Shown here piece after piece: positions 22,387-24,916 of a stretch of 64,000 nt of DNA. The position numbers and the translations under genes were made by a program. The notes beneath the pieces are model-generated. The model was not told where the DNA came from and did not search any database. It saw only the letters and a program-made list of their open reading frames with translations. This DNA comes from Escherichia phage VTCCBPA_211, in sequence record PP989838.1, one strand, 5' to 3'. How positions within the stretch are numbered: position 1 is the first letter of the stretch; every line of letters begins with the position of its first letter.

Positions 22387-23637
22387 ATGTCAAAGATCAT
22401 TTTGGGAGACACAGGTTGTAAGGAATGTATCTCTCATGGTCGTGATAAAACCCACAACCACATGATTCTCTTCCGTAACGAAGAGACTGGTGAGGAGTGG
22501 GGAAGTTGTAACCGTTGTGGGAATTACGAAGTGTTCGAAAAGGGCACTACACCTACTCCAAACGAGAAGAAAGAGTTATCCCCTGAAGAGTTGAGAGAAG
22601 TCTTAGATGATTGCTTAGAGCTTCCTCAGGGTGAACTTACTCGCCGTTTAATCCCTAAAGCTGTATCAGAGCGGTTTGAGTGTCGTATTGGCCTCAGTCA
22701 AACTGATGGTCAGACACCAGACAGTTACTTCTTTCCTCGTGAACGTGATGGAAACATTGTCGGATACGAGGTTAAGCTGCTAGATAGTAAGAAGTTCTAT
22801 TACGTCGGCAGTGTGAAAGAAGCAGATTTGTTCGGTATGGCACAAGCTCAACGTGGAGATGTGTACAACAAGAAGCTGTTCATTTTTGAAGACCCGCTAT
22901 CCTGTATGTCAGGTTTCCATGTCCTTACAGCTTTTACAAATGCAACAAATATTAAACCAGCATGTGTTTCTTTACCGTTCGGTGCAGGTTCAATCTCTTC
23001 TGTGTTGTCTCGTAACCGAGACTTCGTAAATGGTTTTGAGGAGGTTGTGCTCTGCATGGACAACGATGATGCAGGTGAGATAGCTTTAACAAAAGGTCGT
23101 TCTTTATTCCCTCATGTTAAGTTTGCTCGTATTCCTAAAGGAACTTTCCCATACAACGGTGTGGAGAAAGAGATTAAGGATGCGAATGACATGCTTCTGT
23201 CTGGTCGTGGTCAAGAGTTATTCAACATTCTCAAGTACTCAGCAAAGCGGGAATCTCCTGCTGGAGCTGTAACAATCTTTGATTGTCTTGATGATGCTCT
23301 GAAGAAAGCGGAGTGGGGTATCCCATATCCGTGGAAGACTCTGAATGAGATGACCTTCGGTATTCGATGGGGAGAGGTGGTAGCAATTGGTGGTGGAGTA
23401 GGGAGTGGTAAAACACTCATTGCTCACGAGCTGGTTGCTCATCTGTGCTTAGAGCATGGTTTTAATGGAGGTGGCTTCTTCTTGGAAGAGAAGGTAGGCA
23501 TGTCTGTTAAGAACATTGCTGGTAAGTCAGCATCAATTCCTTTCCACCGACCTGATGTTGAATATGATGAGGAGGATTTGCGTAATGAAGCACTTCGTTA
23601 TGCAGACAAATTCTTCTTGTATGACAACTTCGGTTAA
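22387..23637 (+). CDS. DNA primase-helicase, N-terminal part (zinc ribbon, TOPRIM, Walker A) up to the insertion
   Basis: Cys4 zinc motif CKEC...CNRC; TOPRIM-like VVLCMDNDDAG; Walker A GGGVGSGKT. Confidence 0.85.
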   Translation: MSKIILGDTGCKECISHGRDKTHNHMILFRNEETGEEWGSCNRCGNYEVFEKGTTPTPNEKKELSPEELREVLDDCLELPQGELTRRLIPKAVSERFECRIGLSQTDGQTPDSYFFPRERDGNIVGYEVKLLDSKKFYYVGSVKEADLFGMAQAQRGDVYNKKLFIFEDPLSCMSGFHVLTAFTNATNIKPACVSLPFGAGSISSVLSRNRDFVNGFEEVVLCMDNDDAGEIALTKGRSLFPHVKFARIPKGTFPYNGVEKEIKDANDMLLSGRGQELFNILKYSAKRESPAGAVTIFDCLDDALKKAEWGIPYPWKTLNEMTFGIRWGEVVAIGGGVGSGKTLIAHELVAHLCLEHGFNGGGFFLEEKVGMSVKNIAGKSASIPFHRPDVEYDEEDLRNEALRYADKFFLYDNFG

Positions 23638-24350
23638 CACAATGGCCGAAGTAAAACTAGGTGAATTCAGGGAAAGCTAAGTCGAAAGATATGCCAATCC
23701 TGAGCGAAGCCCTTCTCCTCCTATAGCACAAGGAGGTAATTCATGAAACGAATCACAGGATACGAAAACTACACCATTTCTGAAAACGGTGAGGTTTTTA
23801 ATAACAGAGGTGCTCAATTAAAACCTTTTGTGAATAAAGGCAGAAATGAGTACTTGAGAGTGACACTAAGCTGTAGAGGGAAATCTAAACATTTTCTTGT
23901 TCACAGATTGGTTGCTCAAGAATACCTTAAAGATTTTAACCCGAATCTCCAAGTAGACCACATGGATGGTGACAGTAGAAACAACCACCACTCAAACCTC
24001 CAAATGGTTACTTGCAAAGAAAATAACTCACTTGCTTCACAAAGAGAGTGGGAAAAGGGTGGTAATCAAAAACATTCTGATGATACAGTAAGGGAGGCCA
24101 TAAGGCTTTCTCTAGATATGTCAACAGATAAGGTTGGGGAATTACTAGGTATCTCAGGGAGACAAGTCAGACGATACAGAAGTTTGACAAGTCGAAGATT
24201 TGTTGGAGAAGGGAACGTGCAGAGACTATCCGAAAGGAGTACACTGGAAGCTAATGACAGTGGAAGCGCCTAGCCCCTTAACAGGGTGATGATATAGTCC
24301 AATCCCGTGGGAAACTGCGGGCAGTAGCCATGATGCTACGGGTAAAGGAG
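23635..24350 (+). mobile_element. putative group I intron carrying an HNH endonuclease ORF, interrupting the helicase gene (boundaries approximate)
   Basis: Helicase frame breaks after motif H1; begins with TTAACACAATGG, the same 12-mer found at the DNA polymerase interruption. Confidence 0.45.
23743..24273 (+). CDS. HNH homing endonuclease
   Basis: SD aaggagg; HNH-type motifs HRLVAQEYL...DHMDGDSRNNHHSNLQ. Confidence 0.8.
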   Translation: MKRITGYENYTISENGEVFNNRGAQLKPFVNKGRNEYLRVTLSCRGKSKHFLVHRLVAQEYLKDFNPNLQVDHMDGDSRNNHHSNLQMVTCKENNSLASQREWEKGGNQKHSDDTVREAIRLSLDMSTDKVGELLGISGRQVRRYRSLTSRRFVGEGNVQRLSERSTLEANDSGSA

Positions 24351-24370
24351 TTGCGTCCTTTATTGAATTA

Positions 24371-24916
24371 TTGCAAAATGAATGGGAAGACATTAAACAG
24401 TGTATCCGTTTCTGGGTAGTTGAAAACCAGTGTAAGTTCATCATCCTTGATAACATTACCGCTCTGGTGTCTCATTTAACACCTTCAGAGATTAACACTG
24501 AAATCAGTAAGATTGCTTCCGAGCTTGCTGGTATGTGTAAAGAGTTAGACTTTACCGCTTTCGTGCTATCTCACCTTAATGCTCCGGCAGGTGGTGCTCC
24601 TCATGAAGAAGGTGGACAGGTACGTGAAGTACAGTTCACTGGCTCTCGTTCTCTTATGCGTTGGTGTCAGTGTATCATTGGCTTTGAGCGTGACAAGCAA
24701 GCTGACGGCTTAGCTAAGAACCTCTCAGTCATTCGATTACTGAAAGAACGTAACTACGGTCAGACAGGTGTATGTTATACTAAGTATATCAGTGAAACCG
24801 GTAGACTTGTAGAAAGGGAAGACTTTGAAGTTGATGAAGATAATCCATTCGTTTTAACTAACGGAGAGGATGCAGCTTCTCTCGTCAACCAAGCAGATGG
24901 AGCTTCACCGTGGTAA
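24371..24916 (+). CDS. DNA helicase, C-terminal part (frame open from about 24293)
   Basis: Walker B-like [11 protein letters not shown] and downstream DnaB-family motifs. Confidence 0.75.

Follow-up and report, generated by a model that had tools for sequence, protein, structure and literature searches.

The question raised by the 64,000-nt stretch of Escherichia phage VTCCBPA_211 analyzed here (sequence record PP989838.1, hereafter the window) is how its primase/helicase gene, at positions 22387–24916, can yield a working protein when its reading frame is broken by a segment carrying an open reading frame (ORF) for an HNH endonuclease. Phage replication genes are well known to harbor group I introns that encode homing endonucleases of the HNH or other families, such as T4 td, nrdB and nrdD (sunY) and the polymerase gene of SPO1. 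Our analysis leaves little doubt that the segment is a mobile IA-type phage group I intron of 739 nt, located in the essential primase/helicase gene (similar to T7 gp4) of a Kuravirus coliphage. A first-pass annotation, made from the sequence alone, had called the insertion a probable group I intron, and this is supported by the restored exons, a wobble pair at the 5' splice site, the terminal G, two half matches to the Rfam group I model RF00028, and by RNA folding and covariation.

Boundaries of the insertion

The source is a phiEco32-like coliphage (Kuravirus, Gordonclarkvirinae). A nucleotide search with 22387–24916 matched the DNA primase/helicase gene of about 98 phiEco32-like coliphage records at 98–99% identity, always in two blocks that together make up 71% of the query; coverage of at least 80% was reached in none of the 98 records. 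The counterpart in phiEco32 itself, phi32_75 (gp75), is a single unbroken coding sequence (CDS) of 1791 nt and 596 residues, followed by the gene for the DNA polymerase exonuclease subunit, and the window gene matches it in two blocks at 98.9% identity. Exact boundaries and the restored frame were established computationally from this comparison, as were, further below, the covarying RNA fold and the family of the ORF.

22387–23634, plus strand: primase/helicase exon 1, colinear with phiEco32 gp75 codons 1–416; zinc-finger/Toprim primase, Walker A and motif H1a; 3' end GGU
23635–24373, plus strand: group I (IA-type) intron, 739 nt, ends fixed by the intron-less homolog; 5' UAACACAAUGG, 3' AUUAUUG, last base omega-G
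24374–24916, plus strand: primase/helicase exon 2, colinear with phiEco32 gp75 codons 417–596; 180 codons plus stop, with Walker B and the C-terminal helicase motifs

The helicase frame is closed by TAA at 23635–23637, directly after the codon GGT (23632–23634), and the first-pass annotation was correct in placing a stop at 23637 after the Walker A region. It had the frame resume around 24293–24371. Walker B does lie downstream and the frame is open from about 24293, yet a base-by-base comparison shows that homology to the unbroken phiEco32 gene restarts at exactly 24374, and the stretch 24293–24373 is intron RNA. At the DNA level, the insertion begins with TAACACAATGG and ends with TTATTG. 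Excising 23635–24373 leaves 1791 nt or 596 codons, with zero residues gained or lost relative to gp75. The joined exons read GAC AAC TTC GGT/CAA AAT GAA TGG (DNFG/QNEW; the slash marks the junction), where phiEco32 has GGA CAG AAC GAA TGG, and the predicted spliced junction is ...AACUUCGGU/CAAAAUGAAUGG...

Walker A (GGGVGSGKT) is thus part of exon 1 and Walker B (FIILDN) part of exon 2, which starts CAA AAU GAA UGG in the RNA. Each exon has a weak Pfam match (Toprim_2 in exon 1, DnaB_C in exon 2) and can be aligned to T7 gp4. The spliced protein aligns with T7 gp4 (PDB: 5IKN) continuously across the junction (E 1.5e-32), with FFLYDNFG/QNEWED opposite FHLYDSFA/EAETDR. The insertion therefore breaks up a conserved stretch of the RecA-like helicase core, the LYDxF block, which has motif H1a (FLEE) on one side and Walker B (H2) on the other.

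Homologous introns at the same site

Relatives of the HNH protein are rare: only 13 were found at E ≤1e-5 among 5.8 billion proteins, the best being 94% identical. The contigs of these relatives have a common layout of primase/helicase exon 1 (416–426 residues), HNH ORF and exon 2, and they provided six distinct homologs at the identical helicase site in metagenomic contigs. Two near-identical Kuravirus contigs from Logan, L003 and L004, come from separate sequencing runs and show the same arrangement, which rules out an assembly artifact. More divergent carriers are five phages, represented by L005/6, L007/8, L010, L011 and L012. The homologous introns are 737–744 nt long, lie between ...TTYGGT and CAAAAYGA..., and end in G.

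Among sequenced isolates, the gene search found the helicase intron in 0 of 98 records, and a 65-nt probe for the spliced junction detected 108 phage records with a continuous, intron-less site. Neither the exon-intron junction nor the intron start was found in IMG/VR by scans for exact patterns. The distribution is therefore patchy, with none of about 100 isolates carrying the intron as against several metagenomic lineages.

One of the divergent contigs, L007 (ENA ERZ28613979 scaffold_26518), has three group I introns in its primase/helicase gene, at 749–1059, 1336–2072 and 2303–2617, and L008 has the same layout. The HNH-bearing intron of L007 occupies the same site as that of the window; the two flanking introns lack an ORF and score 44.2 and 62.1 bits with RF00028, the second being above the gathering score of this model. 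The primase/helicase gene may thus be a hot spot for introns in this phage group.

Ribozyme architecture

In e-value mode (1-kb search), RF00028 (Intron_gpI) matched the insertion twice: a 5' half at 23625–23910 (32.1 bits, E 3.6e-6) and a 3' half at 24099–24321 (27.7 bits, E 7.4e-5). The former covers P1 and P3–P6, the latter J6/7, P7, the P3 3' strand, P8, the P7 3' strand and P9, so that the two are halves of a single ribozyme. The elements of the model are listed with the evidence for each; MFE stands for minimum free energy, and double-changed pairs are those changed on both sides across the family.

23628–23651, plus strand: P1, CUUCGGU (23628–23634) with the guide GCCGAAG (23645–23651); sequence reading, MFE fold, Rfam alignment
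23657–23663, plus strand: P3 5' strand CUAGGUG, pairs with 24267–24273; 5 of 7 pairs double-changed
23666–23704, plus strand: P4-P5-P5a domain; Rfam alignment, RNAalifold, pair counts, MFE fold
23666–23672 with 23698–23704, plus strand: P4
23676–23677 with 23693–23694, plus strand: P5; J4/5 is AAA
23681–23683 with 23688–23690, plus strand: P5a
23710–23718, plus strand: P6a 5' strand CCCUUCUCC, long-range helix closing the ORF loop; 8 of 9 pairs double-changed
24205–24213, plus strand: P6a 3' strand GGAGAAGGG, within the ORF, where it encodes Gly-Glu-Gly
24224–24228, plus strand: P7 5' strand GACUA, preceded by J6/7 CAGA; pairs with UAGUC at 24295–24299; guanosine-binding helix
24229–24231 with 24236–24238, plus strand: P7.1; RNAalifold, pair counts, MFE fold
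24242–24246 with 24258–24262, plus strand: P7.2; RNAalifold, pair counts, MFE fold
24267–24273, plus strand: P3 3' strand CGCCUAG; pair counts
24275–24278 with 24283–24286, plus strand: P8; Rfam, RNAalifold, pair counts, MFE fold
Within 24275–24299, plus strand: J8/7 UGAUGAUA, then the P7 3' strand UAGUC (24295–24299)
24304–24310 with 24315–24321, plus strand: P9; RNAalifold, pair counts, MFE fold
24324–24328 with 24335–24339, plus strand: P9.1; RNAalifold, pair counts, MFE fold
24342–24349 with 24356–24363, plus strand: P9.2; RNAalifold, pair counts, MFE fold

P1 consists of 7 bp with the loop UAACACAAUG, and its U23634·G23645 pair forms the wobble at the 5' splice site. This U at position −1 and the terminal intron base G24373 (omega-G) are splice-site hallmarks, found at boundaries that had been set independently from phiEco32. 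G23644 and U23643 can pair with C24374 and A24375 of exon 2 and are a candidate P10. There is no P2 between P1 and P3. J3/4, J4/5, J6/7, P7 and J8/7 agree with the RF00028 consensus; P7 is invariant in all eight sequences compared and fits the consensus AGACUA...UAGUC. The motif GAWGAKATAGTC from the region of P8 and the P7 3' strand has exact copies only here and in a second intron, within the window's gene for DNA polymerase (see below). On the strength of two additional modeled helices, P7.1 and P7.2, which separate the P7 5' strand from the P3 3' strand, the helicase intron is assigned to subgroup IA (probably of the phage IA2-like kind).

Folding and covariation

When the ORF loop was replaced by GAAA, the single sequence folded into P1, P3, P4, P5, P6/P6a, P7.1, P7.2, P8, P9, P9.1 and P9.2, the exception being the pseudoknotted P7. 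The MFE was −94.8 kcal/mol (z −5.3), and 0 of 200 shuffled sequences folded as well.

Covariation was assessed in eight introns from which the ORF had been deleted, including the polymerase intron of the window. RNAalifold independently predicted P3, P4, P5, P6a, P7.1, P7.2, P8, P9, P9.1 and P9.2, with compensatory changes at 39 of 67 pairs. In the curated structure, which includes the P3/P7 pseudoknot, 93.0% of cells were paired and 36 of the 62 pairs were changed on both sides. None of 500 shuffles reached any of these measures, and sliding the 3' partners by 1–3 columns reduced the alignment to 36–44% paired cells and 6–13 double-changed pairs. P1 was excluded from the count since its two types cannot be aligned with each other. 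MAFFT misplaced a few columns of P1 and P8 as well as a bulge in P6a of L005, which makes the curated pair counts slightly conservative.

The clearest case is P6a, whose 3' strand is at the same time part of the coding sequence for the endonuclease: the strands are CCCUUCUCC/GGAGAAGGG in the window, CCCGUUGCC/GGCAACGGG in L010, CCCACUGCC/GGCAGUGGG in L011, CCCGCUACC/GGUAGCGGG in L012 and CCAUCCAAUC/GAUUGGAUGG in the polymerase intron. Five of the six counted pairs of P7.2 are likewise double-changed. Even L003, with a core 93% identical to that of the window, has compensatory changes in P7.2, P8, P9 and P9.2. The homolog in L012 gives one RF00028 match that spans the ribozyme (42.1 bits).

The intron-encoded HNH endonuclease

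23743–24273, plus strand: intron ORF, 176 residues, I-HmuI-like HNH homing endonuclease; Pfam, PHROG and PDB matches
23717–23736, plus strand: hairpin pairing the Shine-Dalgarno (SD) sequence, CCUCCU (23717–23722) with AGGAGG (23731–23736)

That the insertion holds an HNH endonuclease with its own SD, as noted in the first pass, was confirmed. In Pfam, the ORF scores above threshold for HNH_3 (36.3 bits, threshold 24.8) and NUMOD4 (26.1, threshold 23.4) and below threshold for HTH_23 (20.6), and it matches PHROG 59 at 2e-31. Against I-HmuI (PDB: 1U3E; E 3.7e-12) the catalytic DH...N...N motif is kept, VDHMDGDSRNNHHSNL standing opposite VDHKDGNKDNNLSTNL. The closest matches in sequenced phages by translated search, which include the intron endonucleases of SPO1, SP82 and CampHawk, are only about 35% identical. 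The enzyme is a candidate for a new site-specific nicking or cutting endonuclease; I-HmuI itself nicks one strand.

Coding sequence and ribozyme overlap. The final 69 nt of the ORF (24205–24273) double as the P6a 3' strand, P7, P7.1, P7.2 and the P3 3' strand, and its TAG stop sits within P3. At the other end, the AAGGAGG SD (23730–23736) lies 6 nt 5' of the ATG. Seven family members were folded, and in each of them the SD belonging to the intron ORF is base-paired in the MFE structure (z −1.9 to −3.9). Equivalents of the window hairpin at 23717–23736 occur in L005–L012 and at about 36117–36140 in the polymerase intron, each just downstream of, or partly overlapping, the P6a 5' strand. By analogy with the intron ORFs of T4, the pairing probably limits translation and so spares ribozyme folding from ribosomes; the hairpin may act as a switch between the two.

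Proposed splicing and homing

The following course of events, including endonuclease activity and target, is drawn from what is established for group I introns and I-HmuI. In the pre-mRNA, P1 would be formed by the guide GCCGAAG and the seven bases that end exon 1, CUUCGGU, bringing U23634·G23645 to the active site built by P3–P8. A free guanosine bound in P7 (GACUA/UAGUC) would attack the bond after U23634. G24373 would then enter the same pocket, and the 3'-OH of exon 1 would attack the bond after G24373, joining GGU to CAA in an mRNA for an unbroken 596-residue primase-helicase.

For homing, the 176-residue I-HmuI-like endonuclease would be made from the ORF looped out of P6a, with its own SD held in the small hairpin. 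The enzyme probably nicks or cuts intron-less alleles (TTCGGA/CAGAAC) in co-infecting relatives, and recombinational repair would copy in the intron together with a few flanking bases. In phiEco32 the intron-less site is TTCGGACAGAACGAATGG. The three differences from phiEco32 nearest the junction are all synonymous: A to T at −1 (GGA to GGU), G to A at +3 (CAG to CAA) and C to T at +6 (AAC to AAU). They equal the exon flanks of the distant intron-bearing relatives (GGT/CAAAAT) and supply the U at −1 for the P1 wobble, and the three together were found in 0 of the 108 intron-less junction records (best match 96.9%). Such a pattern would be expected after homing with short co-conversion tracts.

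Alternative explanations

Several points weigh against a functional group I intron. P2 is missing though every more distant helicase-site relative has it, and P10 is just 2 bp. The covariance models proposed as a check in the first-pass annotation were successful in part: the two half matches were found, but no RF00028 match reaches the gathering score of 50 bits, the whole-window scan reporting a tRNA only. The scores fall short because the ORF-bearing loop of about 490 nt (23719–24204) splits the core and P2 is missing. The covariation sample is small (eight sequences) and the helices were partly derived from the same sequences; this worry is lessened by the slid controls as well as by RNAalifold and the MFE fold, which gave independent predictions. 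Finally, an in-frame TTG at 24371, 21 nt 3' of AAGGAG inside the P9.2 stem, is a possible separate start for the C-terminal half.

This TTG also counts in favor of reading the locus as a fractured gene, in which a free-standing HNH gene was inserted and the helicase halves are translated separately as subunits, without splicing. It opens an ORF of 181 residues with AAGGAG (24345–24350) upstream, exon 1 does end at a stop (TAA, 23635–23637), and DNA polymerase is already encoded in two pieces in this phage group, an exonuclease subunit being separate from the polymerase. We nevertheless consider a fractured gene extremely unlikely. A free-standing endonuclease gene needs no 250 nt of conserved structured RNA around it, yet the RNA outside the ORF forms a full group I core that covaries strongly among relatives, and the boundaries of the insertion show U(−1) in P1 and omega-G. 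Exon 2 has no plausible start, the SD-like sequence 21 nt from the TTG being buried in the P9.2 stem, and the break falls within the conserved LYDxF block of the RecA-like helicase core. An intein was ruled out by the TAA right after exon 1 and by an ORF that is in a different frame with its own SD and ATG.

The absence of P2, the short P10 and the Rfam scores under the cut-off would also suit a decayed intron of group I origin that lost P2 and had its 5' end rearranged, and that now splices poorly by itself, depends on a helper or leaves the helicase defective (e.g. in a non-viable metagenomic variant). This is very unlikely in our judgment. All core helices and the consensus bases of the junctions are intact, as are the HNH ORF and its catalytic motif, and the compensatory changes in L003 indicate ongoing selection on the fold. 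The polymerase introns of the window and of two IMG/VR contigs, L047 and L097, likewise do without P2, and viable phages have helicase exons 99% identical to the present ones. The mobile group I intron thus accounts best for this locus. Its correct annotation is one joined CDS with exons 22387–23634 and 24374–24916, in place of the two truncated "helicase" ORFs plus HNH gene that gene callers give, for example for L003 and L004 from Logan.

A related intron within the gene for DNA polymerase

36041–36728, plus strand: group I intron of 688 nt, related to the helicase intron, within the gene for DNA polymerase; boundaries from the intron-less polymerase of phage SDYTW1-F1-2-2_3

The polymerase insertion follows ACG TT, precedes T ATC TAT and has G as its last base. 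It has the P1 loop UAACACAAUGG of the helicase intron, with AGACGUU paired to the guide GGCGUCU; it gives an Rfam match to the 3' half and fits the family structure. The guide of each intron is complementary to its own 5' exon. The ORF of the polymerase intron (36144–36638) is EndoVII-like by PHROG endonuclease families, and an exact-protein look-up found it not on record. The two intron ORFs thus belong to unrelated endonuclease families, I-HmuI-like HNH in the helicase gene and EndoVII-like in the polymerase gene.

The first-pass annotation had observed that the same 12-mer begins both insertions and had taken this as a sign of related self-splicing elements. The 12-mer TTAACACAATGG is indeed present at both sites (23634–23645 and 36040–36051), but its first T is the last exon base in both genes and only the other 11 nt are the intron start; the relationship holds, as the polymerase insertion is a related intron of the same architecture. 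With up to one mismatch, four matches to TTAACACAATGG were found where 0.34 are expected. A third exact copy lies at 1091–1102 on the minus strand, within a plus-strand ORF at 895–1386, about 0.01 exact copies being expected by chance. It was rejected as an intron, having no P1/guide complement and no Rfam signal and lying inside that ORF. The 12-mer alone is therefore not diagnostic, and the third copy is an odd coincidence with nothing functional apparent.

The two introns do not resemble each other evenly along their length. Their ribozyme cores are about 49% identical, while the helicase-intron core is 67–72% identical to its helicase-site relatives. The first 22 nt of the helicase intron (23635–23656) are 73% identical to those of the polymerase intron (36041–36062) without gaps, the six mismatches lying at the guide sequence and directly behind it; compared with the helicase-site relatives, these 22 nt are 36–52% identical with 15–16 gap columns, since those relatives have a short P1 and a P2 hairpin. 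P2 is absent from the helicase introns of the window and L003, and present in L005–L012 and in the polymerase introns of phages KarlSchell_Bas89 and ManiMatter_Bas94.

In IMG/VR, a looser pattern (TAACACAATGG N16-20 AATTC) gave mostly random hits among the matches listed, to which a filter for P1 complementarity was then applied. Among the matches listed, only two polymerase-site introns passed, L047 and L097, in which the polymerase junction AGACGTT/TAACACAATGGGCGTCT recurs and P2 is again absent. The nearest relatives of the core, in the polymerase genes of Bas89 and Bas94, have P2. No sequenced Kuravirus carries the window polymerase intron at its exact site, and coverage of 80% or more of this intron was reached by a single record, that of the T7-like Aeromonas phage PT2 (66% identity).

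The shared 11-nt P1 loop may accordingly reflect exchange of a 5' module instead of simple common descent, and the sequence comparison suggests that the lineage of the window and L003 took this module from a polymerase-type intron. We tentatively propose, as a possibility with the odds somewhat against it, that the helicase intron is a natural chimera of a helicase-site core with its HNH gene and a 5' module copied from the co-resident polymerase intron. Under this equally tentative scheme the module would comprise the P1 loop UAACACAAUGG, the P2-less spacing and J1/3, and only the 6-nt guide would have been re-matched to the helicase exon. If true, this would be a case of modular exchange between co-resident group I introns.

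Comparison with known phage introns

The type of element is already known; what is new is the Kuravirus gp4-type primase/helicase as intron host, and in the literature we found no description of an intron in this gene of Kuravirus. The current understanding of how such elements work is unchanged. With the phage IA2 introns (T4 td, nrdB and nrdD, and T7-like polymerase genes) the helicase intron shares the P3–P9 core with P7.1 and P7.2, an ORF looped from a peripheral helix into the core, a site in a conserved block of a gene for DNA metabolism, and the splice-site marks, 5' U·G and 3' omega-G. It differs from them in its gp4-type primase/helicase host gene, its Kuravirus host and the lack of P2, and in an ORF of the I-HmuI-like HNH/NUMOD4 type, rather than GIY-YIG (I-TevI/II) or the EndoVII-like type of T7-like polymerase introns. 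Introns in DNA polymerase genes of T7-like phages are known, e.g. the Pf-WMP3 intron with I-PfoP3I (PMC3428280).

Over about 90 nt, the 3' core of the helicase intron is 78–87% identical to polymerase introns of Bas93, Bas94, Vi06, Aeromonas MQM1 and Klebsiella phages. The helicase intron matches only introns of T7-like and other phage polymerase genes, whereas the polymerase intron of the window matches T4-type nrdB, nrdD and td introns. The polymerase introns of KarlSchell_Bas89 and ManiMatter_Bas94, annotated as joined CDS, belong to the same phage group and ribozyme family and have the same layout with the ORF in a loop; that of Bas89 is 84.7% identical to helicase-intron positions 23641–23711. 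Both interrupt the polymerase gene, at sites that differ by a few codons from that of the window polymerase intron, and have a P2 hairpin and EndoVII-type ORFs.

The polymerase intron of Bacillus phages SPO1 and SP82 (I-HmuI/I-HmuII) is likewise in a replication gene and encodes an HNH enzyme with N-terminal HNH and NUMOD/HTH, but the ORFs are just about 35% identical, and host gene, phage lineage and bacterial phylum all differ. Group I introns in helicase genes have been reported in staphylococcal myoviruses, e.g. Romulus and Remus (PMC5526547); a phage helicase gene is interrupted in both cases, although the helicase family and the phages are unrelated. With the present intron, the genes known to host phage group I introns include the gp4-type primase/helicase in Kuravirus-like phages. 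The homologous introns at this one site form a small natural series, with and without P2 and with between one and three introns in a gene, that could serve in studies of intron gain, co-conversion and module exchange.

Neighboring features

In L003 an extra Endonuclease_7 ORF (147 residues, 5170–5613) is found between the helicase and the polymerase exonuclease subunit, where the window has none; this is further evidence of endonuclease traffic in the region. The tRNA gene of the window lies at 9380–9453 on the plus strand (67.6 bits) and has the anticodon loop UCU (Arg); the related phage phiEc_1 annotates a tRNA-Arg within the corresponding region of about 22 kb. The family A DNA polymerase is split as in phiEco32, with the exonuclease subunit (24910–25467) directly after the helicase and the polymerase gene (34695–37300) about 9 kb downstream. 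Such natural splitting of a gene differs from the interruptions by introns.

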